From contig PUMP01000059.1 of the NCBI GenBank assembly GCA_003551425.1, positions 1 through 64,000 on the forward strand: a stretch of 64,000 nucleotides of DNA, in the 5' to 3' direction. This document shows, in pieces, positions 1,154 to 62,764 of the stretch (position 1 is the first letter of the stretch; every line of letters begins with the position of its first letter). Origin of the DNA: Candidatus Nealsonbacteria bacterium. GTDB lineage: Bacteria > Patescibacteriota > Minisyncoccia > Minisyncoccales > PWPS01. The translations under genes were made by a program, and so were the position numbers. The notes below the pieces were generated by a model. The model ran no database searches. It worked only from the letters and a program-made list of their open reading frames with translations, and was not told the origin of the DNA.

Positions 1154-1196
1154 CAAGCAGTGAGACTACATTAAACAATTCTTAGTAATCACCAAA

Positions 1197-16249: not shown

Positions 16250-16252
16250 TTA

Positions 16253-19562: not shown

Positions 19563-19563
19563 T

Positions 19564-20193
19564 TTACATAATAAGTTCTTCCGGTATTTCCGGGAAGTAC
19601 CCCTTTTCCGCTTGTTTTGGATGGTGCATGCTCCAAAGCAACTCTATGAGCTCGGAAGAAGTAAGCGGAACGGAGTGAAGGCTGCACCTGCGAAGCCCCA
19701 AAGCCACAAACTCCATTCTTTGGTATAACTGATCTCTTGATCTTTTAAAAACTTCTTCGGAAAGAGTTCCTTTGCGTGATGCTACAACGTCACGGGTTGA
19801 AGTCTTTGTTTCACCGACACTGTAAGGGACAACAACGAAGAAATTCTTGCTATAGACATCTTCTTTTCTTACAAACTCTTCCAAAAAGTCTATATATCCC
19901 GCTGTTTGGTGCCGTAAAAGATCATTAGTCTGTTCTTTCTTGAGCTCTTTAATTTTATCTATATATCCTCTGATATTGGTTCTCCTGGACTGAACCACAA
20001 TTTGTAAATAAAAATCCAAAGAGTTTAAAAAGGCTTGGAAGTGATAGATGATTGCCTTTTGCTCTTCTTCGGACTTTAAGACGAAGTTTATCGATGAAAT
20101 CATTAAGATTCCCCGTAACTGATTGTTTTTTAGAACAATCAACCCTTCTCTTATTTGCTTTATTTCAAGTAACTCTTGTGTGCTTAAAGGCAT
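19564..20193 (-). CDS. Probable N-terminal domain of VirB4 encoded as a separate ORF (stop TAA, 1 nt, then ATG of the ATPase ORF)
   Basis: Its 209 aa plus the 605 aa of the next ORF equal the ~800 aa of a full VirB4. 'INFVLKSEEEQKAIIYHFQAFLNSLDFYLQIVVQSRR' resembles the CagE_TrbE_VirB N-terminal region. The junction reads ATTATGTAAAATGTCA. Confidence 0.4.
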   Translation of the reverse strand: MPLSTQELLEIKQIREGLIVLKNNQLRGILMISSINFVLKSEEEQKAIIYHFQAFLNSLDFYLQIVVQSRRTNIRGYIDKIKELKKEQTNDLLRHQTAGYIDFLEEFVRKEDVYSKNFFVVVPYSVGETKTSTRDVVASRKGTLSEEVFKRSRDQLYQRMEFVALGLRRCSLHSVPLTSSELIELLWSMHHPKQAEKGYFPEIPEELIM

Positions 20194-20195
20194 AT

Positions 20196-20621
20196 TTAAA
20201 ATGTTTCAATACGTGAGCTCACCTTGCCGAGCCTACTGCCTTTTTTTAATTTTTTCTCTTCCTCCCTTTCTTCTGTTTTTTTCTTCTTTGGGAGAGACCT
20301 CTTCTTTCTTTCTGTAGATATTTTAACCGGTTTTTCTTTTTTTTCCCATACATACTCTTTTGAAGCTGTAGAGAAAGCAATATAGTTTTTAATGTAGTTA
20401 GAAAGAGGCATTTCGTTAATTTTTAAAAAAGCCAAAGCGACTCCTCCTGTAGCCACAAAGGCGGAAATGAAAAAGAAAAGGAGCAAACTTACTTCTCTTA
20501 ATATAAGATAAAGGAAAAAGATAATAAAAGCCGCGATTCCAAGCGGGATAATTTGTTGGAAAGTAGCAGGGCCCACTATTTTTGCCTCATGCTCAATATT
20601 CCTTGGCACTTTATATCTCAT
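20196..20621 (-). CDS. Small two-TM membrane protein, VirB3/PrgI-like T4SS component
   Basis: 141 aa with two adjacent TM helices after an N-terminal 'KVPRNIEHEAKIVGPATFQQ'. It sits immediately upstream of VirB4 as VirB3 does, and has a lysine-rich C-terminal tail. Confidence 0.4.
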   Translation of the reverse strand: MRYKVPRNIEHEAKIVGPATFQQIIPLGIAAFIIFFLYLILREVSLLLFFFISAFVATGGVALAFLKINEMPLSNYIKNYIAFSTASKEYVWEKKEKPVKISTERKKRSLPKKKKTEEREEEKKLKKGSRLGKVSSRIETF

Positions 20622-20749
20622 ATGATCATTTTAGCACAAAGGTAATCCAAGTAAAGAGGGAGGGTGAAGCTTGACAAATCTGCCATTTCATGATAGAAAA
20701 AAAGCGGAGTATGCACACTACAAAATTGTTATATAAGGAGGTTTTTAAA

Positions 20750-21991
20750 ATGATATGGTGGATTCTTTTTGTACTGTTGTTGGTAGGAATCTTTCTCCTC
20801 TCTTTCTATTCTCTCCGGTATTCTTTTGGAAAGGTGGAAGAAGGGACGACCAGGGTTATTATGAGCCTTGGGCAGTTTGATAACATCAAAATGGTCTGGA
20901 GGGGCCATTTTATGGATGAAGACTTTAACATTCTAAGAGAAGAAGAGGACGATGGAAGAAGAAGAAAAAAGATATCTGGTCGAATTTTTGGCGGATTCTT
21001 CTTTATGGGGCTTTATCCTTTTAAGAAGATCCATAGCTATTCTATTACGTGGAGTAGTAGCCATGGTCGAAAAGAAGGAAAAGCTGGGATAAGTGAAGAA
21101 TTCAAGAAGATAAACCTCAAGCCCGAGGTTTATAGGTCGCTGGTAGAGAACGCTGAGACAAAAGAAAGGGTGCAATGCAAGGTTGAATACCTTGTGACTC
21201 TCAGAATTAATAATCCCTACAGATTTTTATTCGTTAGCCCTGATAACTCCCTAGAAGAAGCGTTGTCCCAAATAGATACACTGATACGTGACCTGGTTGG
21301 AAGTTATTCCTTTGAGAAGCTGTATACGCTTGAAAGACAGAAGATTTGGGAAAAAGTAAAAGACAGGAAGCTGTTACGAGTGTCCCAGCAAGATCCGGGG
21401 ACGCTTCAAAAGTGGGGAATAGGAGTAGCGAAAGAGGGGATTACCTTTATAGAGGTCTCCCCCATGGACAAGAGAATTACCGAAGCTCTTGCAGAGGAGC
21501 AAAAAGAAGACTTCGAGGCGAAAGGAGCCTCGAAAAGGATAGCAAAGAAAGTAGTATATATGATGGCAGAAGGTGCTGGCAAGACTCCTAAGCAAATCGC
21601 AAGAGATATAGAAAGCGATGCCGAGACGAGAAATAAGTTCTTTTCTTGGTGTCAAGAAATGGTAAGGAAAGATCTTGCCATGAGATCCGGTAGTTATATT
21701 AATGTTGACGTGGAAAGTGGAGGCGAGCTGGAGAAAACAATTCTTAATACAATTGCGGGCTTTCTGAGAATGCCACAGGGTCCGCAAGGAAAAGGAAATG
21801 AGCAAGGAGGCGTAGAAAAAGAAGAGAAGAAAAAGCCTAAGAATGATGTCGATGCAGACGAAGATGAAATAGATGAAGAAGAGCAAGAAAACGAAGAAAG
21901 CAACAAAGAAGAAGAGGGCTCCGAGGTTTCATACAGCCCGGAACTTATGAAAAGAAATAGAGAGAGAATACTAAAAGAACAGGGCCGTTAA
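20750..21991 (+). CDS. SPFH/band-7 (stomatin/prohibitin-like) membrane protein with an acidic C-terminal tail. The start was set at the ATG preceded by GGAGG.
   Basis: N-terminal TM 'IWWILFVLLLVGIFLL'. 'GTTRVIMSLGQF', 'KVEYLVTLRINNPYRF' and 'WGIGVAKEGITFIEVSPMDKRITEALAEEQKE' fit the SPFH fold pattern. A D/E-rich tail follows. Confidence 0.5.
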   Translation: MIWWILFVLLLVGIFLLSFYSLRYSFGKVEEGTTRVIMSLGQFDNIKMVWRGHFMDEDFNILREEEDDGRRRKKISGRIFGGFFFMGLYPFKKIHSYSITWSSSHGRKEGKAGISEEFKKINLKPEVYRSLVENAETKERVQCKVEYLVTLRINNPYRFLFVSPDNSLEEALSQIDTLIRDLVGSYSFEKLYTLERQKIWEKVKDRKLLRVSQQDPGTLQKWGIGVAKEGITFIEVSPMDKRITEALAEEQKEDFEAKGASKRIAKKVVYMMAEGAGKTPKQIARDIESDAETRNKFFSWCQEMVRKDLAMRSGSYINVDVESGGELEKTILNTIAGFLRMPQGPQGKGNEQGGVEKEEKKKPKNDVDADEDEIDEEEQENEESNKEEEGSEVSYSPELMKRNRERILKEQGR

Positions 21992-22016
21992 CCCCTTATA
22001 ACAATTCAACTTTAAA

Positions 22017-22044
22017 GGCCGACAATCACTGTCGGTCTTCTTCA
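22017..22044. terminator. Hairpin ccgaca-atcac-tgtcgg followed by a T-rich tract, a candidate bidirectional terminator
   Basis: A perfect inverted repeat lies between the convergent SPFH gene and the 22059-22469 gene. Confidence 0.5.
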
Positions 22045-22058
22045 TGGACAAGAAAGAG

Positions 22059-22469
22059 TTAAGTTATGGGCTCTCTGTAAGGATCGCTACTCCTTTTCTC
22101 TGTTGCTTTCTTCCTCTTAGGGAGAGACTTTTTCTTTTCTTTAACATGAGGAGAGGAGATGTGCGGCAATACTTTTGAGCTTAACGTTCTTTTAATTTTT
22201 CGCGCTCTTTCTTCACTTACTTCTAACTTCTTAACAAAATAAGAAACCATATCTTCTTTCTTTAACTTTCCATGAGCGTAATCGGATACGGCTTTAGAAA
22301 TAATTCCTCCGGGAGAAGAAGCCATTATTTTCTTTCTTTCTTCTTTCTCTTCGCACTTAACCCATTTTTGAAAAGACTTGTCTTGCTTAGACTTTAATTT
22401 CTTGCTTTTTTCAACAATCTCTTTAATTATTTCTGCGACGTTTTGAGGATAAGTTATTTTTTCACTCAT
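22059..22469 (-). CDS. Hypothetical small basic protein (K-rich, 136 aa) within the T4SS-like locus
   Basis: Reasonable ORF in an operon-like array, with no recognisable motifs. Confidence 0.4.
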   Translation of the reverse strand: MSEKITYPQNVAEIIKEIVEKSKKLKSKQDKSFQKWVKCEEKEERKKIMASSPGGIISKAVSDYAHGKLKKEDMVSYFVKKLEVSEERARKIKRTLSSKVLPHISSPHVKEKKKSLPKRKKATEKRSSDPYREPIT

Positions 22470-22479
22470 ATGAAATTAA

Positions 22480-24699
22480 TTAATCATCTCTTAGTTCTTC
22501 AGCTTCTATATATGCAGGATGAGCTGTGATAATGTTAAAGTTATGTCTTCTTTGCCTGCGTGCCTCTTCGGGGAAGTCATTAAATGTTTCTATAAGATTC
22601 CTTAATCCCTTATAATTATATTCTGCTACTGCTTGGATGCTGCGAGAATTCTGAGTAAGAGCGTCAGCAACGGCTTCGTTTCTGTAAGCGGAAGGAATCA
22701 TGTTTCTTTGTTCTCCGGGGCTCATATTTAGCACCAGATTAACATCATCTCTGTATCGATCGTCTAATCGCCTTTCCAGTTCTGTTTGAATTATTCTGTT
22801 TCTTTCCTCTTCAGATTGCCCTTGCCTCTTCGGGGTTTCTCGCGCAACATCTTCCCAGGTAGGTTGTTCTTCTGCGTGCGGGGCTATTTTTTTGTATTGA
22901 CTTATTTGATTATTTACATTTCTTAGTGCGTTTGCTTGGCTTCTTTGCCTTCTATTCATCTCTCTTTGAATTCTATCATTGTAATCGGCATTTGATTCTC
23001 CTGTATTTTGTGGAAAATCTCCTTGTACCGCTCCCCTGGTGATGTTTTCTTGAGATGCTTCAACTTCCCTTCTTTTCCTTTGTAATTTCTCTATTTCGTC
23101 TCCAATAGCTAATCTAGCTGCATTCTCTTGATATTTATCACCGGTATCAGCAATTTTTTTCAAATCACCAGCCTTTCCCCCGGCCCTTCTTATTTGATCC
23201 GGTCTTTGGAACTCTGACGGGGTTTTCTTTGCCTCTTCTTCGGCTTCACTTTTTCTTCTTTTTGCCCACCTGGCAAGAGATGGTGCTGCTAATTTTGCTA
23301 TCGGCATCTTTCTCATTCGTTCCGCCATGTTTTCTACACCTTCCGGCACATTGGCTCTTTCTTGTGATCCCTTAGGAACAAAGCTATGCTTGAAAGCTCG
23401 TCCTGCAGTTCCGCTAATTGAAGCACCAAATGTTTTGGCCTGGCTTATTGCGGCATCTACTCCTGCCGGTATAAACTTCTTTCCGAAAAAGAGAATTGTA
23501 ATGAAGTAAATTAAAAGAATGACGTAATAAACAATCCCGCTATCCAGGAAGATTCGTGATATGCCAACAACCCACCCTGTCTCTCCTAGCTCTGCTTCTC
23601 TAATAGAGCCTTCAAGAACATCCACCATTCCTACCATATTAAATCCCAAGATAAGCAGAAAGGCGAAAACGATACCAGCAAAGAGCCACTGCAAAAGGCT
23701 TCTTAGCCATAACTCAAAATAGCCGTAGATCTTTGTGCCGGGAAAAATCAAACAGATGAAGGCAAGAGGAGCAATAACCGCAAGTATTTGTATGATAAAG
23801 ATTCTTACAACGAAAATCACAAAGAAGAGAAAGAAAGCGCCGGCAAGAAGCATGTTTATCAGTCCCTGAACAAACATTGATAATATCTCACCAAACCAGA
23901 TGAATCCGGCTGCTATAACCGCAAATTGCACCGCTACGGATAAATAAGGGATTAGCATTGCTAAGGAAAATACCCCTAGAGCAACCGCAAATCCAATTAT
24001 TTGTTCTGTTGTACCGGTAAAAAGCGTGTCCATTGATGCAGTAACAAGGTTTGTTGCTTCTTGGGGACCGTCTCTTTCACAGCAACACGGTTCTTCTCCT
24101 TCGCAGAATTGGGGATCTCCAGGGACTGTCCCTGACGGGCACACGCCTTCTCCCGGATAAAATTCTATATGTGTACAATCGGGCTCTATTACAAGTTGCT
24201 CTGAAATAGTGCTAAAGAAAACATTTGAGACATCAATTCCCATTCCTACAAAAACCAAAGAGAAGTTTATAAGCAAGGCGACGCCGATTAGCCTGGGGAA
24301 TGCTTTCTTAAGCCCAAGATTGTCAAACTTTAATATGATAGAGATAGCGATAATAACAAACGCTATGATAAGCAGCATATTAGAGATACCGAGAACAAAC
24401 TCCCATCCTACCTCTATAATTCGATGATCCAAGGTAAGCACCTCCGGTGTGGCTGTAATAATTGACACCAAGTATTCGGTAGCCATCTTTAAGAGCCCGA
24501 AAGAGAGAATTAAAAACAAGAACAAAAATATTGCCAGAGCCAGAATTGGTCCCACTGCTTCAGATAGCCCTTCAAGCTGTTTGTGCCCAAGGTCAAAGAC
24601 AAAGCCATCCGTTATTTTTGGCAATAAAAGAAATAATAGAAAAATAAAGGCAGAAGAGAGCAGCTTTAGCTTTGACTTATATTTTTCCTTTAAAAACAT
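22480..24699 (-). CDS. Polytopic membrane protein, VirB6/TrbL-like, with a Cys-rich extracytoplasmic insert and a long charged C-terminal extension
   Basis: About 10 predicted TM helices in the first 420 aa, a Cys cluster 'GEGVCPSGTVPGDPQFCEGEEPCCCERDG', and a ~300 aa hydrophilic R/E/Q-rich tail. This architecture is typical of VirB6/TrbL/PrgH-like mating-channel proteins. Confidence 0.45.
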   Translation of the reverse strand: MFLKEKYKSKLKLLSSAFIFLLFLLLPKITDGFVFDLGHKQLEGLSEAVGPILALAIFLFLFLILSFGLLKMATEYLVSIITATPEVLTLDHRIIEVGWEFVLGISNMLLIIAFVIIAISIILKFDNLGLKKAFPRLIGVALLINFSLVFVGMGIDVSNVFFSTISEQLVIEPDCTHIEFYPGEGVCPSGTVPGDPQFCEGEEPCCCERDGPQEATNLVTASMDTLFTGTTEQIIGFAVALGVFSLAMLIPYLSVAVQFAVIAAGFIWFGEILSMFVQGLINMLLAGAFFLFFVIFVVRIFIIQILAVIAPLAFICLIFPGTKIYGYFELWLRSLLQWLFAGIVFAFLLILGFNMVGMVDVLEGSIREAELGETGWVVGISRIFLDSGIVYYVILLIYFITILFFGKKFIPAGVDAAISQAKTFGASISGTAGRAFKHSFVPKGSQERANVPEGVENMAERMRKMPIAKLAAPSLARWAKRRKSEAEEEAKKTPSEFQRPDQIRRAGGKAGDLKKIADTGDKYQENAARLAIGDEIEKLQRKRREVEASQENITRGAVQGDFPQNTGESNADYNDRIQREMNRRQRSQANALRNVNNQISQYKKIAPHAEEQPTWEDVARETPKRQGQSEEERNRIIQTELERRLDDRYRDDVNLVLNMSPGEQRNMIPSAYRNEAVADALTQNSRSIQAVAEYNYKGLRNLIETFNDFPEEARRQRRHNFNIITAHPAYIEAEELRDD

Positions 24700-24721
24700 T
24701 TATCTTTAATTATTCTTTATT

Positions 24722-26173
24722 TTATTCCCACCAACCTTCTTCGCATGAATATAGTCCCCACAAACCTTCCCAGCAGACATTAATTGTTACATCTTCGGTC
24801 ATTTCAATGTTAGGGATATATCCATCGTTAATAGCGGGATCTCCTTCTTTTGACCATTCGAAAGTTGTTCCCCACCATTCGGAGCCAACCTCATGAAGTG
24901 CTACAATATTACGGTGTTCCGGAATCTCTGTGCGGCATCTATTTCTAGCTTCCACGAACCCGCAATCAATGTACCCATGATGAGGGGGGCGGTGCTTTGT
25001 CTCTATTCTCATAATGTCAAGCTCGATACCCCAGTCATCTTCATCTGCTTCTCCAATATGGCCCCGATAAGGGTTAATGGTCAGAGTAAATGTCTCTATG
25101 CCGTCGGGAAGATCCAGTGGTCCGGAGTAGCACCGATTAGGAGAGCTGTCTCTGCAATAGGTGCGAGAAATCTCTACGGCACCTTCCTCCGGGTCTGTTG
25201 TTCCTATTGCCTCTCTTTCTTGTCTTCTTTCAATCTCCATGCAATCTATTGATCTTCCAAATCCGAAAATTCCTTCCTCCAGATCAACCGTAGGTATTGA
25301 GCCGCGGCTTAATTTTTCACCACAAGCGACTTCTGGAGCTCCAATCTCCCACCAGTTTGCTGTTGCTTCATAAAGATCGGCTATGGAAGTTCCTCCTTCT
25401 TTATATAAGCCCCTGGGGTCCGGTCTCATTTTCTCACCGGGACCAAACCTTTCCGCCTGATGGCTGCCAATTCCTATTATATCTCCTCCTTGCCCCATTG
25501 TTTGTTCTATTTCTACCGGAGGACTATATCTCTGATACCCAAGAGATATGCCGTCTTCTAGTTGTTTCATTTCATCCGGCGGTATTGCCGTATATCCCTT
25601 TACCGATTTTGGAGAATGATCTTCGTGTATTTCATCGGCTTCTAGTTGTATGTTGTATATATCCTTGTTTCTTATATAAACCGTGGCAATGTGATCTTCA
25701 TGGTTTTTCTTGGCGTAAAACTCCATAATATCAACGGGTTCTCCTTCAAGGTCTGCGAGACTTAGATCGGAAATATAGACTTCGTCATGAATGCTAAAAG
25801 TTACGGGAGAGATTCTTACCAGTTCGGGGTTTATCATGCTTAATATTACCCAAGAAGATAAAAGCAATACTAGCCCTATTACTGCGGACTGGATTCTTGA
25901 CAAAGCATCTTGCATCACGGCGGGCTTTCCGGCAGAGATTGTGTATTGAAATCCGGAGAATACCAGGATGCCAAATACCAGCAATATGCCGATAATAATT
26001 CCCCACTCGTAAAAGTATGCGATAAGTTCGTGAAGTGGCATATCGCGCCGGAACTCTATGGTGGGAGAGTCTGGCCAAGCAACTTCCGTATTGGCAATAG
26101 CCACGGAGAAAGACGCAAAAAATAAAAAGAGAGAAGAAAAAAGCGTTTTTAAATTAAGTATTTCTTTTTTCAT
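24722..26173 (-). CDS. Secreted/membrane protein with an N-terminal signal peptide plus a two-helix pilin-like module, followed by a ~380 aa Cys/His/Trp-rich extracellular domain
   Basis: The signal peptide is followed by 'HELIAYFYEWGIIIGILLVFGILVFSGFQY...AVIGLVLLLSSWVILSMINP'. This two-helix module is similar to the C-terminal modules of the 26874-29972 and 41710-42222 proteins. Confidence 0.5.
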   Translation of the reverse strand: MKKEILNLKTLFSSLFLFFASFSVAIANTEVAWPDSPTIEFRRDMPLHELIAYFYEWGIIIGILLVFGILVFSGFQYTISAGKPAVMQDALSRIQSAVIGLVLLLSSWVILSMINPELVRISPVTFSIHDEVYISDLSLADLEGEPVDIMEFYAKKNHEDHIATVYIRNKDIYNIQLEADEIHEDHSPKSVKGYTAIPPDEMKQLEDGISLGYQRYSPPVEIEQTMGQGGDIIGIGSHQAERFGPGEKMRPDPRGLYKEGGTSIADLYEATANWWEIGAPEVACGEKLSRGSIPTVDLEEGIFGFGRSIDCMEIERRQEREAIGTTDPEEGAVEISRTYCRDSSPNRCYSGPLDLPDGIETFTLTINPYRGHIGEADEDDWGIELDIMRIETKHRPPHHGYIDCGFVEARNRCRTEIPEHRNIVALHEVGSEWWGTTFEWSKEGDPAINDGYIPNIEMTEDVTINVCWEGLWGLYSCEEGWWE

Positions 26174-33575: not shown

Positions 33576-36455
33576 TTAGAACTTAAAATCTAAATCAGAG
33601 ATGTCCGGAGTTTCTTCCTTTTTCTTTGGAGAAGGGGGAGTCTCTTCTTCCTCCTCTTCCTCTTCTTCCTCTTCCTCTTCTTCATCTTCCCCCTCCTCTT
33701 CAGGCTCTTCTATTTCTTCCTCGCTTTCTTTTGCTTTTTCGTCATTTTCTTCTAATTTTTTTCTGTCCAGTTCTTCTCTATATTTATCTTCTTCCTCCTC
33801 TTCATCTTCTTCCTCCTCTTCTTCTGCCTCTTCCTCTTCTATGTCTTCATCATCATCTAGCACTTCCTCTTCTTCCGGCTCTTCTTCTGTTATTATCGAC
33901 TCTTCTTCCTCTTCGCCCTTTACGGACTGCTCCAGCTCTCCTATCTCTTCTCGAAGCTCCGCTTCTCTTTTTTGAATAAGGTCGAATCCTTGTTTTTCTT
34001 TTTCAATTTCCGCCAATCTATTCTCTAACTTCCATATCTCCTTTTCTTTATCGCGCTTTTCTTCTTCTACCTCCCATCTTTTTTCTTCTACTTTCTTTTT
34101 TTCTCCGGGATCTTCGATGTATTGCTCTTCTTCCTCTATGTCATCCATGCGACTTTTAATTTCTTCTTTGCTCTTCTTCATCTCTTCAAGAGATTCTTTT
34201 ATTTGAGTTTCTTCATCAATTAATTTCTCGCTTTTTTCTTCTATTCTGCCCCTAATTGTTTGTACTCTTTTCAGTTCTTTCTTCTTTTGTTTTGCTTTCT
34301 CTGTCTTCTCTATATTTTCCTCTTTTACCGCAAGAGAACTTTCTTTCTTCTTTAACCTTTCTTCTTCGTTTAGTATTTGCTGGTAATGCAGTTCGGAAGC
34401 GTACAATTGTTCTTCAATCTTTTTAACTCTTTTTTGCAAGCCCCACTTTTCTTTTTCAATATCTCTTCTTTTTTCTTCTATCATCCATCTTTCTTTTTCT
34501 TTTTCCCTCCTTTCTTCTGTAGTTTTGGCTGACGATTCCTCTTTCTCAATCTTCTTTTTCCTGTCTTCTACCTCTTTCTCCCTTTCGAGCGTAATATTTA
34601 ATTTTTCTTGAAGATGATCTTTCTTCTCTTTCGTTTTAGCTGTCTTTAAATCAAGACCCTTTCTTTCCTCTTTGATAGAACTTATTTTTTCTTTTATTTT
34701 TGCTCTTTCCAGTGAGACTTTTACCCTTTTTTCTTTCTGAGACAACTCTTTCCACCTTTCATGAACTCTTTTTTCTTTATTGGAGATTCTCCACTTTCTT
34801 GTGTGTGTTTGGCGGCTTCTTTTTTTTATTTCATTTAATCTTTCCTTGATGTCCCATATCTTTCTTTTAGCCTCTCTTATTTCTTCTTCTACCTCCCATC
34901 TGTTCTTTTCAATCTCACTTTTTTCCTCCGGGTTGTATGCTATTTTTTCTTTTGACTCGATATCATCCCTCTTTCTTTCAATATATCTTTCTTCTTTATA
35001 AGCTTCTTCTAGCTTTCTTTCGCTCACTTTTTCTTTCTGTGAAAGCTTATCTGCCTCAATCTCTAAGAGCTTTCTTTCTTCTCGCAAGTCGTAGAATTGG
35101 TCACTTAACTTTTCTTTTAATAGTTCTATCTTCTCCAAGTGAAGTTCTTTTTTTTGTACCGAGGAAAGAGTTTCATCTTGTAAGCCAATAGCGATCTCCC
35201 TTTCTTTTCTCTTAATATTTCTTTCTCTTTCTCTTTCTTCTTTTCTTTTTTGCAACTCTTCTTCTTTTTTTCTTATAAGCTTCTCTTGTTTATTGATTTT
35301 CTCTAACCCTTTTTCGGTGTCACTTAGCTCTTTTTCCATGTCCCATCTCTCTTTCTCTATGTTTCTTCTTTTTTCTTCTATACTCCACCCTCTTTCGGTT
35401 AATTCCTTTTCTTCGCCCGTCCCCTTTGCAATGCTCTCCTCTTTTTTAATACTGCTCTTTTTACTCTCTATCTCTTTTTCTTTCTCTTTTATTTCTTTTA
35501 ATTTATCTGAAAGCTCTATTCTTCTTGCAAGAAGATTCTCTTTCTCTTCTTTAAGAGATTCTTTTTTTTCGGTTATTTTTTCTTCGAGATCACCTGCCGG
35601 TATTTTTTCTTCTTTCTCTAGAGGAGTCTTTGTTTCTTCCCTTGCTTTTACTTCTCTTATCTCGTCTTCTTTTTCTTGCAGCTTTTCAATCTCTTCTCCA
35701 AGCTCTTCCAATCGATTGGTTGCTTTTTCAATCTTTTCTCTTGCAGCGGCAACCTCTTCTTCTTTTTGCCACCTTTCTTCTTCTATTTTTTTTCTTTCGT
35801 CTTCTATCTTCCACCTTTCCTCCTTAAGTTTCTTTTTTTTGGAAAAGTCTTTTTCTATTTCTTCTTTTTTTTCCAGGTCTCTTTCTTTTTTTTCAATTGT
35901 TTTTTCTTTCTCTTTTATTTCTCTTAGCCTTTCTTTTATTTTTTTCTCCTCGCTAACCAATGATTTTTTTTCTTTAAGAAGAAGATTCCCTTCCTTTTCT
36001 TTCTTCTTTATTTTTTCTTCAATTTGTTCTCCCTCTGTTTCTTTTTGGTCTTTTTGATCTTTTTCAAGTTTTTGCTCTTCTTCTTTCTTCTTTTTCTTAA
36101 GCTCTTCTCTCTCTTGCCTTAAAGAGCTTATTTGTTTTTCTACTTCTTCAACCTTACTTTCCCAGTTCCAACGCTCTTTTTCGATGTCTTTTCTTTTGTC
36201 TTCAACTCTCCATCTTTCTTCGCTTATTTTCTTTTTTTCTTTCTCGTCTTTTGTTTTTTCTCCCTGCTCTTCTATCTCTTTTTCTTTATCCTCTATCTCT
36301 CTTTCTTTTTTGGTTATAAGGTTGAGGCTTTTTTTAATTTGCTCTTTCTTTTCCGTAGCGCTGGCAATGTTAACTTCTAGCTCTTCAAGCTTTTTTTCCA
36401 GCTCTTTTAATTTATTGTTTTTTTCTTCCAAGTTATTATTGTTTGAATTTATCAT
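33576..36455 (-). CDS. Giant (959 aa) E/K-rich coiled-coil repeat protein with a poly-acidic C-terminal tail
   Basis: There is no TM or signal. The motif 'E[EK]RW.[IV]E[DE][KE]R[RK].IEKE.W..E' occurs at least 6 times (for example EERWRVEDKRKDIEKERWNWE, ERWKIEDERKKIEEERWQKE, KERWMIEEKRRDIEKEKWGLQ). The tail is 'EEEEEEEEEEEEEETPPSPKKKEE'. Confidence 0.6.
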   Translation of the reverse strand: MINSNNNNLEEKNNKLKELEKKLEELEVNIASATEKKEQIKKSLNLITKKEREIEDKEKEIEEQGEKTKDEKEKKKISEERWRVEDKRKDIEKERWNWESKVEEVEKQISSLRQEREELKKKKKEEEQKLEKDQKDQKETEGEQIEEKIKKKEKEGNLLLKEKKSLVSEEKKIKERLREIKEKEKTIEKKERDLEKKEEIEKDFSKKKKLKEERWKIEDERKKIEEERWQKEEEVAAAREKIEKATNRLEELGEEIEKLQEKEDEIREVKAREETKTPLEKEEKIPAGDLEEKITEKKESLKEEKENLLARRIELSDKLKEIKEKEKEIESKKSSIKKEESIAKGTGEEKELTERGWSIEEKRRNIEKERWDMEKELSDTEKGLEKINKQEKLIRKKEEELQKRKEERERERNIKRKEREIAIGLQDETLSSVQKKELHLEKIELLKEKLSDQFYDLREERKLLEIEADKLSQKEKVSERKLEEAYKEERYIERKRDDIESKEKIAYNPEEKSEIEKNRWEVEEEIREAKRKIWDIKERLNEIKKRSRQTHTRKWRISNKEKRVHERWKELSQKEKRVKVSLERAKIKEKISSIKEERKGLDLKTAKTKEKKDHLQEKLNITLEREKEVEDRKKKIEKEESSAKTTEERREKEKERWMIEEKRRDIEKEKWGLQKRVKKIEEQLYASELHYQQILNEEERLKKKESSLAVKEENIEKTEKAKQKKKELKRVQTIRGRIEEKSEKLIDEETQIKESLEEMKKSKEEIKSRMDDIEEEEQYIEDPGEKKKVEEKRWEVEEEKRDKEKEIWKLENRLAEIEKEKQGFDLIQKREAELREEIGELEQSVKGEEEEESIITEEEPEEEEVLDDDEDIEEEEAEEEEEEDEEEEEDKYREELDRKKLEENDEKAKESEEEIEEPEEEGEDEEEEEEEEEEEEEETPPSPKKKEETPDISDLDFKF

Positions 36456-36467
36456 GAGCCAAAAACC

Positions 36468-38726
36468 TTAAGAAATTACTTTTTGAAGTTCGTTTGTTAT
36501 TTTTTTTGCAATTTCCGCAAACCTTTCTTCAAGAACTTCACTGTCTTTCTCTTTCTCCATCATTGTTTCTGTCTTCTTTTTTTCTTTCTCCAGAGAGATT
36601 AACTGTTCCTTGTCTTTAAAGCTTTCTTTCTCTTTGCTTAATTTATCTTCTTCTTCCGATATTTGCTTGTACTGTGATTCTATTTTTTTCTGAAGGTTTT
36701 CCATTTCTCTTATCTTTTCCTGGAGCTTCCATTTTAAGCTCTCTATTTCTCTTCTCTTGTCTTCTAGCTGCCATCTCTTCTTTGTCTCATCCTTTCTTTC
36801 TTTTGAGTTAATATCCATTGTCTCTATTTTATCTTCCATCCATCTTATTTGTTCTTCAACCTCGCTCTCATTTTTCATTATATCTCTTAATTTTTCTTCA
36901 CTTTCTTTCTTCCTCTCTTGTAGTTGCCTTTTTTTCTTATCAAGAATTTCTCTTTTTTTCTTAAGCTCTTCTTCCCTTTCTCTTATCTTCTCCCTTCTTC
37001 CCTCCATCTCCATCCACTCCAAAAGCTTAGAGGCAAGATCTTTTTCTTTATCGTGCATATTTTCTTTTTCTTCCATCAATCTATCATATCTTTTCTCCAT
37101 CTCTTTCCTTTCTTTTGTAACATTGTTTAATTTTTCTTGGATGTCCAAAGATTCTTTTTCCACGGCTCTTCTTTTTTCTCCTATTTCCCACCTTTTCTTT
37201 TCCATCTCTCTTACTTCTTGAGGGTCCTTTGCTGTTCTTTCTCTTTCTTCGATATCTTCTTTCTCTTTCTTCATCTGTTTTTCTTTTTCATAAACTTCGT
37301 TGAGCTCTCCTTTGATCTCTCTTTCTTTTTCCAAGGGAGCCTTTAAATCTCTCTTAATCTCTTTCTTTTTTTCTATCGTCTCACAGATAGCGCCTAAAAG
37401 ATCTATTCTGTTTATGACTATCTGTTTTCTGTATCGGGGGTCTCTTAAAAGAAACTCTTTTCTTTTAAGGGAAATGAAGCGCTTTTTCTCTTCAATCTGC
37501 TCTTTCTCTTTTGCTCTTTTTTCCTTTTCTTTGTTTAGGGCATCTTCTGCGGCGGTGGTTCTTTCTTGAAAAGCTTTTTCATTTTGCCGTATCTCTTTTT
37601 TAAGTGACTCTATTTTTTCTTTTAGAGAAGTACTTTTGCCTTCAATTATCTTTATTTTCTCTTTTGTTTTTTTAATTTTTTCCTGCCACTCCCAAGCCTC
37701 TTCTTTGACTTGTTTCTTTTTCTCTTCGATCCTCCATCTTTCACTTTCAAGTTCCTCTAGCTCTTTGCTATCCTCTGTTTTCCCCGTTCTTTCTTTTATG
37801 TCTAAAAATCTTTCCTTTATGTTTTTATCTACTTGGATAATTTTCTTTAACTTGTCTTTTGCTCTTTTTTCACGAGCTTGAAGCAGTCCTATTATTTGTT
37901 CGTAAAAATTATTTTTCTTTTCTAGAAATCTTATTTTGCTTTGAGGTATGAGGATAGAAAGCTTAAGACCCAAAGCCTCTCTTTCCACCTTTATTATCTC
38001 GGCTTTTCTCTTTGCTCTTTCTTCTTTTATATCACAAAGGAGTTGCCTTAACTCAAGAGATTGTATTCCTTTTTTAATTTGAATTATTTTTTCTTCTATT
38101 TCCCAGCTTATTCTACTCGCTTCTCTTTCTTTTCTGCTTATCTCTTCTTCTTTTCTTTCAAGGTCTTCCTGTCTTTCAGGGCTTTGTGCCGCCACTTTCA
38201 TCTCTTTTATCTTTTCTTTTTGCGTCTTTATCTTTGTTTCCTTTGATTTTACAACGCCTTTTTTCTCTTCCAGCTTTATAATGTTCTTTTTTGCAAAGTT
38301 ATTCTTTAGCTCGAGAGATTTTCTTTCTTTTAACACCTCTTCCAGTAGCTGGTTGTTTCTTTCTTGCTCTTGTCTTTTTTCTTCAATTTTTCTTTTGGTT
38401 GCTTCTATTTTATCCTTTACGGACTCTTTTATCCCTTGTCTTGTTTTTTCAATATTTTTTATCCACTCTTCTTTTTCTTCCTTTTCAATCTTTCTTATTT
38501 TATTTTCTTCCTCCAGTCTTGCTTGCCTTTTTTCTTCCTCTTTTCTTTTTTCTTCTTCTCTTATTATTTCTTCTTCTTTCTTTTTGTCTTCTTCACTTTT
38601 CTTTTGCGTTCCTTTCTGCGGGGGTTTGGATTGTTGAGCCACGTCTTTTTTTCCTCCTGTCTTGGCAAGTAAAAGGTCCTTTTTCATCGTCCTAATCTCT
38701 TGTGTGGTGTCTTTATTTTCTTCCAT
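36468..38726 (-). CDS. Giant (752 aa) E/K-rich coiled-coil repeat protein, paralogue of the 33576-36455 protein
   Basis: Same composition and the same W-containing motif ('SERWRIEEKKKQVKEEAWEWQEKI', 'KKRWEIGEKRRAVEKE', 'KKRWQLEDKRREIESLKWKLQEKI'). It lies directly downstream of pnp on the same strand. Confidence 0.6.
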   Translation of the reverse strand: MEENKDTTQEIRTMKKDLLLAKTGGKKDVAQQSKPPQKGTQKKSEEDKKKEEEIIREEEKRKEEEKRQARLEEENKIRKIEKEEKEEWIKNIEKTRQGIKESVKDKIEATKRKIEEKRQEQERNNQLLEEVLKERKSLELKNNFAKKNIIKLEEKKGVVKSKETKIKTQKEKIKEMKVAAQSPERQEDLERKEEEISRKEREASRISWEIEEKIIQIKKGIQSLELRQLLCDIKEERAKRKAEIIKVEREALGLKLSILIPQSKIRFLEKKNNFYEQIIGLLQAREKRAKDKLKKIIQVDKNIKERFLDIKERTGKTEDSKELEELESERWRIEEKKKQVKEEAWEWQEKIKKTKEKIKIIEGKSTSLKEKIESLKKEIRQNEKAFQERTTAAEDALNKEKEKRAKEKEQIEEKKRFISLKRKEFLLRDPRYRKQIVINRIDLLGAICETIEKKKEIKRDLKAPLEKEREIKGELNEVYEKEKQMKKEKEDIEERERTAKDPQEVREMEKKRWEIGEKRRAVEKESLDIQEKLNNVTKERKEMEKRYDRLMEEKENMHDKEKDLASKLLEWMEMEGRREKIREREEELKKKREILDKKKRQLQERKKESEEKLRDIMKNESEVEEQIRWMEDKIETMDINSKERKDETKKRWQLEDKRREIESLKWKLQEKIREMENLQKKIESQYKQISEEEDKLSKEKESFKDKEQLISLEKEKKKTETMMEKEKDSEVLEERFAEIAKKITNELQKVIS

Positions 38727-58366: not shown

Positions 58367-59310
58367 AAATAAAAGAAATATATAATTTAGCCGTAAAAGA
58401 AGGAATAGAAGCCGACTTTAGAGGGAAAGAAAAAATCTCTTGGCTTCTCGACAGAAAGAGGAAGAAGTTTGAAAAGATGAGTGAAGAACAGAAGGAAGAG
58501 TTTGACCAAGAAAAACTAAATAATCCTTTTACCGATACCCGTATTCTTGCTGGAGATGAAGAAAAAGAAGTCAAGAAGATCATGGTAGGTATTGATATTG
58601 ACGGGGAAGAACTTCTCCTGGCTAAAGAATTGGGAGATATAGATTTGGTCATTTCCCATCATCCACGAGGGAAAGCTCTTGCCGGACTGGATGATGTAAT
58701 GGAGCTCCAAGCAGATCTTCTTCATGATTACGGAGTTCCTATTAACATAGCGGAAAAGCTTTCAAAGAAGCGAATTCAAGAAGTTTCTCGCGGGCTTGCT
58801 CCCGGAAATCATAACAGGGTAGTAGATACGGCAAACCTTTTGGGAATTCCTTTGATGTGTATACATACGCCCGCTGATAATCTTGTAGCAAAATTTGTAG
58901 AAGAAGAGATTAAAAAGAATAACCCTTTTTTGGTGGAAGATGTAATGAAAGCACTCAAAGGAATAGAAGAATATCGCAGGGCGATTGCCATAGGAATTGG
59001 TCCTAGGCTTTTTGCCGGCAAGGAAGAAGACAGAGTAGGGAAAATAGCGCTTACGGAGATTACGGGAGGCACGGAAGGGTCTTCTCACATCTATGAGCAC
59101 CTTGCAAGGCAAGGAATAGGGACCGTTGTTGGAATGCATATTTCGGAAAAGAGTCGCGAGGAGGCTGAGAAGGCGCATATTAACGTAGTTATTGCGGGCC
59201 ATATTTCTTCCGATTCTATCGGAATGAATCTTTTTCTTGATTTACTTGAAAAAGAAGGATTAAACATAGTCCCTTCTTCGGGGCTTATAAGGGTCTCAAG
59301 GCAAAAGTAA
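58363..59310 (+). CDS. Nif3-family dinuclear metal-centre protein (GTP cyclohydrolase 1 type 2 / YqfO-like)
   Basis: 'DLVISHHP', 'MCIHTPADN' and 'VIAGHISSDSIGM' match the Nif3 metal-binding motifs. Confidence 0.7.
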   Translation: MKIKEIYNLAVKEGIEADFRGKEKISWLLDRKRKKFEKMSEEQKEEFDQEKLNNPFTDTRILAGDEEKEVKKIMVGIDIDGEELLLAKELGDIDLVISHHPRGKALAGLDDVMELQADLLHDYGVPINIAEKLSKKRIQEVSRGLAPGNHNRVVDTANLLGIPLMCIHTPADNLVAKFVEEEIKKNNPFLVEDVMKALKGIEEYRRAIAIGIGPRLFAGKEEDRVGKIALTEITGGTEGSSHIYEHLARQGIGTVVGMHISEKSREEAEKAHINVVIAGHISSDSIGMNLFLDLLEKEGLNIVPSSGLIRVSRQK

Positions 59311-60113
59311 TGCGTCTTTTCTTAGTAGAGCTTTTTCTTTTTTCGGTCACTTTACTCTTAGGAATTTTAGTTTCTTTTCGGCTTGATAAAGCTCTTGTGG
59401 TAGAAGGATCTGTCGCTCCGATGGGAGCGATTTTTTTATACTTTATACTGGCAACTCTATTTATTCTTTTTTTTATAAAGAAAGGAGGAGAAAGAAAAAC
59501 TTTTTTCTTTCGTTTAGCATTTTATCTGGCTGTCTTTTTTGGAGGACTAATTACACTTTCTAGCTTTTTAGAAAATTATGCTTTTATTTTTCTCTTCCTC
59601 CTTCTTTTTATTTTTACCGTTAAGCCGATTATTTTAGTACACAATATTTGTATTATTATCGGCATTTCCGGGGTAGGCGCGATGGCCGGTCTTTCTTTCT
59701 TACCGCAACAGATTGCAATATTTATGGTTTTGCTCTCTTTTTATGATGTGATTGCGGTATACAAGACAAAACACATGATAAAAATGGCCAAAGAAATGAT
59801 TGCTGCACGTTCTTTAATGGGGATGATTATCCCTTTTCATTTACGGGACTTTCTTTCAACAAGCAAGAAATTTTTTATTTTAGGAGGAGGAGACGTTATG
59901 ATTCCGCTTATTTTTGCTGTTTCTTTTGTCCCTCAAAATAGTGTTTATCCTTTTGTTATTTTTCTTTTTTCAATTCTTGGTCTTTTCTTCTCTTTTCTTA
60001 TTTTTATATCACTCTCACGTCCTATTCCCGCGTTACCCCCGATAGTACTTTTCCTTCTTTTGGGATATCTTTTTATTGAGCTTCAGGTTCTTTATCATAT
60101 AGGTATCCTTTAG
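59310..60113 (+). CDS. Presenilin / signal-peptide-peptidase-like (A22 family) intramembrane aspartyl protease homologue
   Basis: Polytopic (about 8-9 TM helices). It has the catalytic-type motifs 'SFYDVIAVY' (YD), 'LGGGDVMIPLIF' (GxGD) and 'SRPIPALPPIVLF' (PAL) in the canonical order and spacing. Confidence 0.55.
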   Translation: MRLFLVELFLFSVTLLLGILVSFRLDKALVVEGSVAPMGAIFLYFILATLFILFFIKKGGERKTFFFRLAFYLAVFFGGLITLSSFLENYAFIFLFLLLFIFTVKPIILVHNICIIIGISGVGAMAGLSFLPQQIAIFMVLLSFYDVIAVYKTKHMIKMAKEMIAARSLMGMIIPFHLRDFLSTSKKFFILGGGDVMIPLIFAVSFVPQNSVYPFVIFLFSILGLFFSFLIFISLSRPIPALPPIVLFLLLGYLFIELQVLYHIGIL

Positions 60114-61628
60114 GCGATATCCGGATTTTCTCCAGTAATCTCTTGCGCCAATTCCGGAGATTACCGTAATGCGGTCTTTTTTGAATTCATCTTTTACTAT
60201 TTTTTCTGCTCTTTTGATTAACTTTTTGCCGAGCCCTTTATGCTGAGGAGATGCTGCACCTTTATTCTTTATTAAGAGTTGTTGCCCGTAAGTGTGTATT
60301 TCTCTTATAACCCCTGAGCTTTTTAGTACCGAAAAAACTGAATCTTCTACCTTTCTTAATCTTAATATAGCAAAAAGCTTATTTCTGCTATCGTTTTCTA
60401 TGCTGAGAAAAACCTCTTTTCCTTCTGACGCAAAATAATCTTCTCGGAAAATCTTTAGTTTCTCTTTCGGATTATATTCTCCCCTTACTTCTCTGCAACG
60501 GATACACTTACATCTCCAATTTTCTTTTTCGGCTTCTTTTATAATATTTTCCCTTAAGTTAGATATTTTTGAGCCTGCAATGATACTTTGTGAAGGAATG
60601 TCCCGAAAAAGCCTTTGTATTCTCACATAGCGCGGAATAAATTCTCTTTTTATCTTTTTGATTATCCCTACAAGTTCTTTATTAGTAAAAGCACGGTATT
60701 CCCCTTTTTGCCAAAGAGAGTATAGGGGAGCTTCTTTTAACACGGCGCAAGGGTATATCTTTAAAAAATCAGGGCGAAAAGATGAGTCTTCAAAGAGTTG
60801 TCGGAAGGTTTCAACGTCTTTTTTTACGCTACTTTGTGGAAGGTTGAGCATTACTTGATGACAAACCTTAAAACCGGTGTCTTTTAAAAGTTTTGTTGCT
60901 TTTTTTGTGTCTTCCACTTTGTGCCCTCTTTGATTGAAATCTAATACGTCATCAAAAAGTGACTGAATGCCAAGCTCAACCATGGTAACTCCCATGGAGC
61001 GCATCCTTTCAATCTCTTCTTTGGTGATAAAATCGGGCCTAGTCTCTACGGAAAGACAGATAATACGATGCTTTGCTTTCTCGTTTCTTTTTTGGGCTTC
61101 TGCTAGGTTTTTGCTGTTTCTTCTATTGCACGCGTCAAAGCATTTTTTGATAAAGCTTTCTTGGTATTTTTTAGGATAAAAAGACCACGTTCCTCCTATA
61201 ACCCTTAATTCTATTTTATCCGTAGGATGCCCTGTCTTTTGTAAAGACGAGATCCTTGTTTTTACTTGTTCTTGAGGGTTATAACTATTTCTTACCGCAC
61301 GCATTACGGCCGGCTCGTTCTGGAGATAGCTTTTCGGTACTCCTTCCTGAAACGGGCAGTAAAGACATCTCCCTGGACAAGGAAAGGGCTTGGTAAGAAC
61401 AGATATGTTTACTACTCCGGACAGGGAGCGAACGGGCCTTGTTCTCAGCAAAGAAACCACTCGTTCGTCTCTTTTTTTATTTTTATGATAAACTTGAAGA
61501 AGGTCCGTATTGGTAGGAAAAGAGGCTTTATGCTTTTTGGCCACTTCTCTTTTTATCCGGTTTAGATCCTTTATATTGGTCGCCTCTTCTTCAATTATTT
61601 TTTTAATTATTTCTTTTTCGATGCTCAT
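60033..61628 (-). CDS. Elongator Elp3 homologue (radical SAM + GNAT; tRNA wobble uridine cm5U synthase)
   Basis: Radical-SAM 'CPGRCLYCP' (CxxxCxxC), Elp3-type N-terminal 'SGVVNISVLTKPFPCPG' and a C-terminal GNAT 'HKGLGKKLIKRAEKI'. The ~530 aa length fits bacterial Elp3. Confidence 0.8.
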   Translation of the reverse strand: MSIEKEIIKKIIEEEATNIKDLNRIKREVAKKHKASFPTNTDLLQVYHKNKKRDERVVSLLRTRPVRSLSGVVNISVLTKPFPCPGRCLYCPFQEGVPKSYLQNEPAVMRAVRNSYNPQEQVKTRISSLQKTGHPTDKIELRVIGGTWSFYPKKYQESFIKKCFDACNRRNSKNLAEAQKRNEKAKHRIICLSVETRPDFITKEEIERMRSMGVTMVELGIQSLFDDVLDFNQRGHKVEDTKKATKLLKDTGFKVCHQVMLNLPQSSVKKDVETFRQLFEDSSFRPDFLKIYPCAVLKEAPLYSLWQKGEYRAFTNKELVGIIKKIKREFIPRYVRIQRLFRDIPSQSIIAGSKISNLRENIIKEAEKENWRCKCIRCREVRGEYNPKEKLKIFREDYFASEGKEVFLSIENDSRNKLFAILRLRKVEDSVFSVLKSSGVIREIHTYGQQLLIKNKGAASPQHKGLGKKLIKRAEKIVKDEFKKDRITVISGIGARDYWRKSGYRLKDTYMIKNLKLNKKISQKKEKYYRG

Positions 61629-62288
61629 ATGAAAAAAAAGGAAGCAAAATTTTTAATGGAAAGGCTGCGGGAAGATTATAACTCTTTAGCCCCTTCTTTT
61701 TCAAGGACTCGCGATTCTCTGTGGCCGGAACTAAAGTTCCTTTTTGATCGTGCGCGGTCGGGAGAAAAAGTACTGGACTTGGGTTGCGGAAATGGGCGTT
61801 TTTCTCAGTATCTTGAAGAAAGCGATTATGTAGGAGTTGACTTTTCGGATAAGATGATTGAGGAAGCGAAAGCACGTTTCCCGAAAGAAAAGTTCTTAGT
61901 GGCCGATGCTCTTTCTCTTCCCTTTTCTGAAAACTCTTTTCATAAAGTGTACAGCATTGCTCTTATTCATCACGTGCCTTGTGATGATTACAGGTTACAA
62001 GTTTTCAAGGAGATTAAAAGAGTTCTAAAGCCGGGAGGTTATACTTTTATTACTGCTTGGAATATAGAAAAGGGATTTCTTTTTTATTTAAAAAATATTT
62101 TTTGCAAACCTTTTGGCGCTCGTGATACTTTTTTAAAAAGGGAGAAATATTATTATATTTTTCGCAAAGAAGAGCTTTCTTTGCTGGCAACAAAGGCAGG
62201 CTTTAAAGTAATGGAAGAGGGTGTTGTAAAAACTAAAGGTAGAAATAATTTTTATCTTATTGCTTTTAAAGAAAATTCTTCTGTTTGA
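61629..62288 (+). CDS. Class I SAM-dependent methyltransferase, Trm9-like
   Basis: Motif I 'VLDLGCGNGRF', 'GVDFSDKMIE', 'LPFSENSFHKVYSIALIHHV' and 'IKRVLKPGG' resemble Trm9/ALKBH8 methyltransferases. It is divergent from Elp3. Confidence 0.55.
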   Translation: MKKKEAKFLMERLREDYNSLAPSFSRTRDSLWPELKFLFDRARSGEKVLDLGCGNGRFSQYLEESDYVGVDFSDKMIEEAKARFPKEKFLVADALSLPFSENSFHKVYSIALIHHVPCDDYRLQVFKEIKRVLKPGGYTFITAWNIEKGFLFYLKNIFCKPFGARDTFLKREKYYYIFRKEELSLLATKAGFKVMEEGVVKTKGRNNFYLIAFKENSSV

Positions 62289-62344: not shown

Positions 62345-62515
62345 ATGGACCCCGTATCGGTGATTGTGAATTTTAAAAAGGATCACCCGGACAAAGCAAA
62401 AGCTTGGGAGGAAGTACTTGAAGACCTGTCAAAAGAAAAACTGGAGGCGATACTTAAAGCTCCCGAATGGGAGTTCCGGGCAATTGCCAACATCTTAAAA
62501 GGTGTGGCGAAATAA
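62345..62515 (+). CDS. Small hypothetical protein (56 aa, MDPVSVIVNFKKDHPDKAKAWEEVLEDLSKEKLEAILKAPEWEFRAIANILKGVAK)
   Basis: A strong RBS (AAGGAGGG, 7 nt upstream of the ATG) is followed by a terminator. It is not in the ORF track because it is under 60 aa. Confidence 0.4.
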   Translation: MDPVSVIVNFKKDHPDKAKAWEEVLEDLSKEKLEAILKAPEWEFRAIANILKGVAK

Positions 62516-62533
62516 GAAAAAAAATAAATAAAA

Positions 62534-62560
62534 AGGCGGATAGTTCCGCCTTATTTTTTT
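62534..62560 (+). terminator. Rho-independent terminator (aggcgga-tagt-tccgcct + T8)
   Basis: A perfect 7-bp GC-rich stem is followed by TTATTTTTTT. Confidence 0.55.
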
Positions 62561-62764
62561 AGTTATTATTGACAAAATGGTTTAAAAATGTAAGATGAAA
62601 CTATGACGGAAAAAGCCAAAAAAGACGGATTGCTTCTAATGTGCTGTAGTGCACATGGCATTATTTCCGTTACCTTTTTTAGTACTAATTTCGGGGAGAG
62701 TTAGGAAAAATTTAAAACAACATAGAATCAAATCTCCCCCGCTACAAGGGGATTATTTAATTAT

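Follow-up and report, generated by a model that had tools for sequence, protein, structure and literature searches.

What is the function of a small methyltransferase whose gene stands head-to-head with that of a bacterial Elp3? The question is raised by positions 60033–62288 of a stretch of 64,000 nucleotides (nt) from a Candidatus Nealsonbacteria bacterium (contig PUMP01000059.1), the whole of which is called the window here. A preliminary description of this locus had suggested that the pair represents a eukaryote- or archaea-like route of tRNA modification, and our analysis supports that suggestion through the likeness of the methyltransferase to Trm9 and through its conserved linkage to Elp3. 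We propose that the two enzymes make 5-methoxycarbonylmethyluridine (mcm5U) at the wobble position (U34) of tRNA in the window bacterium, and we assign this reading a probability of about 0.7.

The formation of 5-carboxymethyluridine (cm5U) at position 34 has been shown for archaeal Elp3 in vitro and for the eukaryotic Elongator. The Trm9–Trm112 complex of Haloferax (HvoTrm9–Trm112) was shown in 2018 to make mcm5U, and Trm9 orthologues were thought to be limited to the Sulfolobales and Halobacteriales. In Sulfolobus solfataricus, the genes for Elp3 and Trm9 are clustered (Grosjean et al. 2008). A review of 2020 described bacterial Elp3 in Dehalococcoides only and stressed that direct evidence of bacterial xcm5U was lacking (PMC7663514); a paper of 2026 mentions Elp3 in 'numerous bacteria'. 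Our full-text literature searches returned no paper that connects Elp3, Elongator, or Trm9 to the Candidate Phyla Radiation (CPR), Patescibacteria, or Parcubacteria, and none on an Elp3–Trm9 pair in bacteria.

Identity of the two enzymes

The minus-strand gene at 60033–61628 encodes a protein of 531 residues that matches the NCBIfam model of Elp3, the radical S-adenosylmethionine (SAM) plus GNAT enzyme that carboxymethylates tRNA U34, with 555.6 bits (TIGR01211 ELP3, cutoff 350, residues 6–515). The radical-SAM CxxxCxxC motif and the C-terminal GNAT domain named in the preliminary description are both present. The cysteines are C84, C88, and C91 in C84-PGR-C88-LY-C91 (CPGRCLYC, 61356–61379), which align with the triad of Methanocaldococcus infernus Elp3 (MinElp3), at the start of a Radical_SAM domain (residues 84–266, 60831–61379, PF04055, E = 1.5e-16). 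This is followed by Radical_SAM_C (residues 286–366, 60531–60773, PF16199, E = 1.1e-19), then by the linker motif C373-K-C-I-R-C378 (60495–60512), the Zn site of prokaryotic Elp3, which aligns with CRCIRC of MinElp3, and finally by the acetyl-CoA motif region of the GNAT, or lysine acetyltransferase (KAT), domain (residues 462–506, 60111–60245, Acetyltransf_10, E = 3.1e-5), where QHKGLGKKL, beginning at 462, aligns with QHMGYGRML. The three linker cysteines have been reported to be conserved in bacterial and archaeal Elp3 (PMC6367351).

The protein also begins with an ELP3_N domain (residues 5–68, 61425–61616, PF23613, E = 1.6e-10), the extended basic N-terminus of the archaeal and eukaryotic enzymes. 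Among its best matches in the PDB, MinElp3 (6ia8) scored 436.6 bits and an N-terminally truncated MinElp3 construct 430.8, whereas the Dehalococcoides mccartyi enzyme (DmcElp3, 5l7j) scored 388.6. DmcElp3 is without the extended N-terminal region, which in MinElp3 is important for tRNA binding (PMC6367351). Because MinElp3 outscores DmcElp3 and the extended N-terminal domain is present, we regard the window enzyme as archaeal-type. It shares with both structures (6IA8 and 5L7J) the radical-SAM plus KAT architecture, the Cys triad, the Zn Cys motif, and QHxGxG, and, like the archaeal and Dehalococcoides enzymes, it stands alone, without other Elongator subunits. On these comparisons, the window protein is a full-length archaeal-type stand-alone Elp3 in a bacterium. 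A conserved M-x-IEKEII at the N-terminus of its relatives supports the annotated start codon. At the other end, the gene overlaps a convergent presenilin/signal-peptide-peptidase-like gene (59310–60113) by 81 nt, at 60033–60113, and in this overlap lies a basic C-terminal tail of 16 residues that is outside the family model and distinguishes the window Elp3 from those of M. infernus and D. mccartyi.

What kind of methyltransferase is the partner? The plus-strand gene at 61629–62288 encodes a class I SAM methyltransferase of 219 residues, in which the motifs quoted in the preliminary description are found as VLDLGCGNG (residues 48–56), IHHV (113–116), and RVLKPGG (131–137). Its start codon is supported by A6, which is invariant in the family. 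Pfam returned nothing more specific than Methyltransf_11 (E = 6e-25), together with other generic class I families (Methyltransf_25 and Methyltransf_31 among them), and in NCBIfam the UbiE/MenG equivalogs were all far under their cutoffs (TIGR01934, 61.3 bits against 158), as were BioC and similar models. Neither library contains a Trm9-specific model, hence they cannot decide Trm9 membership.

A single-sequence search of the PDB placed Trm9 of Yarrowia lipolytica first (chain 5cm2_Z of the Trm9–Trm112 complex, 63.9 bits, residues 26–201), and the runners-up cover the Rossmann core only. The same entry led with a family profile of 31 sequences (A1; 93.1 bits, second match 85.8) and with one of 41 sequences (A2; 96.2 bits, second match 79.4). 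Trm9 gave the only full-length alignment to A2 (profile positions 25–220), every other PDB match ending at the Rossmann core; UbiE-type entries were well under the Trm9 score. In a high-confidence AlphaFold2 model (predicted local distance difference test score 92.4, predicted template modeling (TM) score 0.90), the Rossmann core is preceded by an N-terminal helix and followed by a β-hairpin lid at the C-terminus, and Foldseek again ranked 5cm2_Z first (E = 9e-18, TM 0.83). CmoM and SmtA entries are absent from the 60 top-ranked PDB matches and from the 25 top-ranked NCBIfam matches. The Trm9/ALKBH8 resemblance suggested at the outset is thus borne out by sequence, by two profiles, and by the structural search, and greater likeness to UbiE/COQ5-type or rRNA methyltransferases was not found. 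On this evidence, the nearest characterised relative of the protein is Trm9, and not another methyltransferase family.

The identity to Yarrowia Trm9 is about 28%. In pairwise comparison, the window protein scores 101 bits with a homologue from Halorubrum and 80.9 with Yarrowia Trm9, while Halorubrum and Yarrowia score 66.6 with each other. Orthology-based names at JGI call many homologues at 47–57% identity 'tRNA (uracil-5-)-methyltransferase TRM9' or 'alkB homolog 8'; NCBI names the same proteins class I methyltransferases only, and many JGI records read 'class I SAM-dependent methyltransferase' or 'UbiE'. A representative-library search with the family profile gave 1,098 clusters at 50% identity with E <= 1e-30, and its best 150 matches are all close family members, with no bridge to eukaryotic Trm9.

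The active site of Trm9 provides a stricter comparison, as mutations of R29, D72, H116, W145, W168, R241, Y243, or N271 in the yeast enzyme (ScTrm9) abolish or strongly reduce activity, and H115 and Y18 are further residues lining the cm5U pocket of the model (PMC4678810). These residues were mapped through a HMMER alignment and checked by the Yarrowia numbering and by the identical 11-residue spacing from Y to R. At 9 of the 11 mapped positions the residue is kept in the window protein, Y17, R28, D71, H114, H115, W144, Y175, and N207 among them; the exceptions are a deleted Trp and an Arg replaced by Lys.

The N-terminal motif Y17-NSLAPSFSRT-R28-DSL-W32 (61677–61724) has the same spacing as Y18...R29...W33 of ScTrm9; Y17 and W32 are invariant in the family and R28 is at least 97% conserved (Arg in 30/31). 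Motif I for SAM binding, LDLGCGNG (residues 49–56, 61773–61796), and the SAM-ribose acid D71 (61839–61841, ScTrm9 D72) are invariant as well. H114 and H115 (61968–61973) correspond to ScTrm9 H115 and H116, whose proposed role is to hold the carboxylate and O4 of cm5U in place. The first of them is invariant, and the second is His in 21 of 31 relatives and Gln in 8, Gln, Asn, and Thr together accounting for 10. W144 (62058–62060), the equivalent of W145 that is proposed to stack on U34, is invariant, and so, in both A1 and A2, is N207 (62247–62249), the equivalent of N271 with its proposed recognition of uracil O2/N3. In the lid hairpin, K173-Y174-Y175 (62145–62153) matches R241-Y242-Y243; the R241 position is Arg in 29/31 relatives, that of Y243 varies (Y/F/V/I), and the preceding 'PW', with the Trp equivalent to W168, is deleted. 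All of these features are on the plus strand. The deviations are concentrated in the window's own 'short' subclade, and the PDB matches ranked next after Trm9 have neither the His pair nor the Trp.

Compared with Trm9 and the methyltransferase domain of ALKBH8 (5CM2; archaeal HvoTrm9, HVO_1032), the window protein has the same fold, the helix motif Y...APxFSxTR...W, and the residues that surround the methyl group of SAM (HH, W, R/K-Y-Y, and the C-terminal N), and it shares the genetic association with Elp3. It differs in being short, in the loss of the W168-bearing loop in its subclade, in Lys for R241, in its bacterial host, and in having no Trm112 gene nearby.

Linkage and junction of the two genes

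The genes are divergent, as first described, and their start codons abut with zero intergenic bases, CAT / ATG at 61626–61631. Is this arrangement peculiar to one genome? A protein scan with Elp3 of one genome per prokaryotic species gave 25 loci. Most carry CPR labels (Patescibacteria group, Nealsonbacteria, Paceibacterota, Gracilibacteria, Peribacteria, 'Saccharibacteria'), some bear no more than 'bacterium', and Gammaproteobacteria is the label on two short contigs. Elp3 is common in the CPR radiation, and bacterial Elp3 is not as rare as the initial statement had it, as the paper of 2026 also indicates. In all 14 loci with an Elp3 at least 49% identical to that of the window, the methyltransferase is present and divergent, at a spacing of <=92 nt in 12 and of about 2.2 kb in 2. 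At one more distant Elp3 (locus L016), a methyltransferase copy bearing the signature lies 3.9 kb downstream.

When metagenomes were scanned with the profile of the methyltransferase, 80 loci were obtained. Upstream sequence was too short in 11 of these; of the 69 informative loci, 58 have Elp3 upstream on the opposite strand. The 11 with at least 1.2 kb upstream and yet no Elp3 include haloarchaeal matches and one Falkowbacteria. Two metagenome matches are haloarchaeal in character, one of them in a protein cluster of Halorubrum saccharovorum. Exact-sequence look-ups of four additional homologues showed, for each, a gene for a Radical_SAM plus Radical_SAM_C protein of 519–552 residues divergently upstream, in one case with an intervening gene and in unrelated surroundings. 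Since the pairing is repeated in about 70 independent loci, it is far from chance, and the co-occurrence across genomes for which a check had been proposed is confirmed.

The closest relatives of the window also share a wider synteny (Mur ligase, RtcB, NIF3, GreA). When the neighbours were clustered over 26 loci, however, the pair was present in 16 and any other neighbour in at most 11; because the pair outlasts all other neighbours, it is not mere inherited synteny. It is kept where the other neighbours all differ (L006, L012, L030, L026), and, across Patescibacteria, down to about 30% identity of the methyltransferase and 41% of Elp3. The linkage is also retained within the short subclade (L001, L002, L003, L034).

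Two side observations concern these loci. In L005, one of the 14 close loci, the Trm9-like gene beside Elp3 (5544–5987, minus strand) is interrupted, its open reading frame (ORF) ending at 75 residues with similarity running to residue 148; this marks a pseudogene or else a fault in the assembly. In 24–27 related loci, an LDcluster4 protein of about 190 residues and a GTP_EFTU_D2-like protein of about 87 residues are encoded shortly downstream of the Trm9-like gene, immediately so in some (L026 5975–6822; L029 9469–10330; L032 5146–5978). This neighbourhood is absent from the window.

The junction itself is distinctive. With start codons in the relatives chosen as those nearest to the homology-predicted N-termini, the commonest form is an overlap of the two start codons by 2 bases in the palindrome CATG, seen in 30 of 80 divergent pairs (24 distinct junctions; loci L002, L003, L005, L006, L008, L010, L012, and L025–L028 among them). 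The CATATG junction occurs in 7 of the 80, including the window, and a gap of 1–5 nt in 11 more. The other nine divergent gene pairs of the window are 38–241 nt apart. Because the start codons touch or overlap, each gene must have its promoter and 5′ leader within the other. A single good promoter match was seen, a predicted σ70-like TTGAAA-18-TATAAT (11/12 consensus positions) within the methyltransferase coding sequence, directed toward Elp3 (61704–61675, minus strand), which fits this arrangement for Elp3 and would imply an Elp3 leader of about 40 nt. No Shine–Dalgarno-like sequence precedes either start. Leaderless transcription was considered and dropped, as no −10-like hexamer is at the right distance from either ATG.

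The proposed pathway and its alternatives

The reaction that we propose for the pair has two steps. In the first, as judged from family membership, the stand-alone Elp3 would use SAM-derived radical chemistry and acetyl-CoA to attach a carboxymethyl group to C5 of U34, with cm5U as the product. In the second, for which active-site conservation and gene linkage argue, the adjacent Trm9-like enzyme would esterify the cm5U carboxylate with a methyl group from SAM, giving mcm5U. On the Trm9 model, R28 and H114/H115 would orient the carboxylate, W144 would stack on the base, and N207 would read the uracil. The touching or overlapping divergent starts bind the two genes physically and probably also in regulation, the latter part being speculative.

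Several observations weigh against formation of mcm5U by the pair. The equivalent of W168 has been removed by a four-residue deletion in the window protein and is missing throughout its short subclade (the position is Trp in 18/31 relatives); the subclade has Lys in place of R241, and several of its members have Gln for the second His. The Trm9 signature is kept in about 100 translated relatives, to 29% identity, but the metagenome scan used two peptide patterns, one of which (IA..HHIP) contains the His pair, so that His conservation there is partly by construction. The linkage has its gaps as well: the Gracilibacteria and Peribacteria Elp3 loci have no methyltransferase within 6 kb, and neither a 47%-identical homologue (L040) nor that of the Falkowbacteria (L081) has Elp3 nearby.

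Furthermore, no Trm112-like gene was found in the neighbourhood, where neither the 56-residue ORF downstream of the pair nor any further small conserved ORF or recurrent neighbour matched Trm112 or a zinc knuckle, whereas the eukaryotic and haloarchaeal Trm9 need Trm112 as an activator. Of six hydrophobic positions by which Yarrowia Trm9 contacts Trm112, two are altered family-wide, to K/R at V59 and to D/N at F78. These charged or polar residues hint weakly at independence of Trm112, and the methyltransferase may work without the activator. No thiolation enzyme was found near the pair. The preliminary description had spoken of a possibly complete pathway. The genes of both enzymes are indeed present and coupled, but completeness is qualified by the lack of Trm112 and thiolation genes nearby and by the loss of one important Trp.

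Could the pair have a different product? The methyltransferase may be derived from Trm9 and coupled to Elp3 and yet yield another end product, act on another intermediate or set of tRNAs, or, in the short subclade, have changed or lost its specificity. The missing 'PW' segment, the Lys for R241, and the Gln at the second His in 8/31 relatives would fit such a change, since W168A and H116A, like W145A, are inactive in yeast (PMC4678810), and the Haloferax study did not detect cm5U itself and suspected other derivatives. On the other hand, the window protein keeps seven of the eight positions at which Ala mutants lost function, R28, D71, H115, W144, Y175, and N207 among them, and has H114 and Y17 as well, and the short subclade is still linked to Elp3, which speaks for a role retained in that pathway. 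We consider a different product unlikely, although it is the alternative that survives best.

A less probable alternative places the difference at the first step: the Elp3 may have no cm5U activity on tRNA, or a weak or other activity, and the pair may act on another substrate. DmcElp3 indeed has very weak activity, and the same review that found no direct evidence for xcm5U in bacteria can be quoted in its favor (PMC7663514). The window protein, unlike DmcElp3, has the extended N-terminus needed for tRNA binding by MinElp3, scores higher against the active archaeal enzyme, and has all catalytic motifs intact, and its partner bears an active-site signature for cm5U recognition; we thus find this explanation improbable. 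Finally, the methyltransferase might be a common enzyme of the UbiE/COQ5 type, or a Methyltransf_11 member acting on small molecules, that stands beside Elp3 by inherited synteny without functional meaning. This reading can appeal to the generic or UbiE/MenG-like library matches far under their cutoffs, to the generic names, and to the wider synteny of the closest relatives, but it is largely refuted, and very improbable, given the survival of the pair among unrelated neighbours, the lower, core-only scores of UbiE-type structures, and the conservation of Trm9-specific residues outside the SAM site.

Formation of mcm5U by Elp3 and the Trm9-like enzyme is therefore the reading that we retain. 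The bacterial pair would then add to a known two-step pathway rather than constitute a new kind of system. As in Sulfolobus, two genes that act in successive steps lie in one cluster in a prokaryotic genome; the present pair differs in being bacterial, and it is divergent, with start codons usually shared or abutting. The purpose, a side chain on C5 of the wobble uridine, is also served in bacteria by MnmE–MnmG, which gives 5-carboxymethylaminomethyluridine and 5-aminomethyluridine (cmnm5U/nm5U), and by CmoM, which converts uridine 5-oxyacetic acid (cmo5U) to its methyl ester (mcmo5U). The enzymes and chemistry of MnmEG are unrelated to those of the pair; CmoM likewise methyl-esterifies a carboxyl of a wobble-uridine side chain. 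The variant features, namely no nearby Trm112, a shortened lid, and a shared start-codon palindrome, are worth testing.

Genomic setting and biological meaning

By appearance, the window is a segment of a bacterial chromosome near the replication origin. The closest relatives of both Elp3 and the methyltransferase are in metagenome-assembled genomes (MAGs) labelled Patescibacteria, Nealsonbacteria, Paceibacterota, or 'Saccharibacteria', and because these are CPR labels, we take the host to be a CPR bacterium. The gene dnaA (14586–16055, minus strand) adjoins a drop to 31% GC at 14000–16250, which is probably the origin. Other genes encode RuvA, GreA, a class A penicillin-binding protein, polynucleotide phosphorylase, RtcB, a Mur ligase, and type IV secretion-like proteins. 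The last of these form a type IV secretion/pilus-like cluster (17745–26173, minus strand) with a TraG/VirB4-like ATPase, a protein with a type IV secretion system pilin domain, and a large M23 peptidase protein; such clusters are frequent in CPR genomes. Two adjacent large ORFs of 959 and 752 residues (33576–38726, minus strand) have no Pfam match, and the strand composition of the region around them is extremely skewed (GC skew about −0.46, AT skew about −0.58).

Downstream of the methyltransferase gene, the 56-residue ORF (62345–62515, plus strand) is preceded at 8 nt by GGAGG and followed by a hairpin that forms a clean terminator (62533–62552); it belongs to no Pfam family, and none of 113 related loci has a homologue. 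It is followed, on the same strand at 62569–62764, by a promoter-like TTGACA-16-TAAGAT and a leader, about 160 nt long, that contains two hairpins, of which that at 62735–62752, just before the greA start, is terminator-like. The region has no Rfam match, and it may be a regulatory leader.

Which tRNAs could be substrates? The window has 16 tRNA genes, and an Rfam scan of it gave tRNAs only, with no other RNA family. The candidate substrates encoded here include Gly(UCC), Arg(UCG), Val(UAC), Pro(UGG), and Leu(UAA). There is also a tRNA-Ile gene (1079–1154, plus strand) with the anticodon UAU in the loop CUUAUAA. In bacteria, AUA is usually decoded by a lysidine-modified CAU tRNA, and a UAU isoacceptor must somehow avoid AUG. 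This tRNA-Ile(UAU) could be a client of a U34-modifying system.

What would the pair mean for these organisms? A broader proposition, to which we give roughly even chances, is that a large part of the Patescibacteria modifies wobble uridine by the Elp3-to-Trm9 route, so that mcm5U would occur in each of life's three domains, with a minimal, Trm112-free Trm9 and with a head-to-head CATG junction by which the two genes would mutually constrain their expression. For annotation, the family assignment corrects the routine labelling of about 1,100 protein clusters as 'class I SAM-dependent methyltransferase' or 'UbiE'. The analysis shows Elp3 in Patescibacteria MAGs under several different CPR labels, and the dedicated downstream partner of this Elp3 predicts mcm5U as the end product, a chemistry so far undocumented in bacteria. 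The two genes form a compact module of about 2.3 kb, apparently without Trm112 or other Elongator subunits, which is possibly a minimal system for mcm5U, and the finding bears on the archaeal-like traits of the CPR translation machinery.

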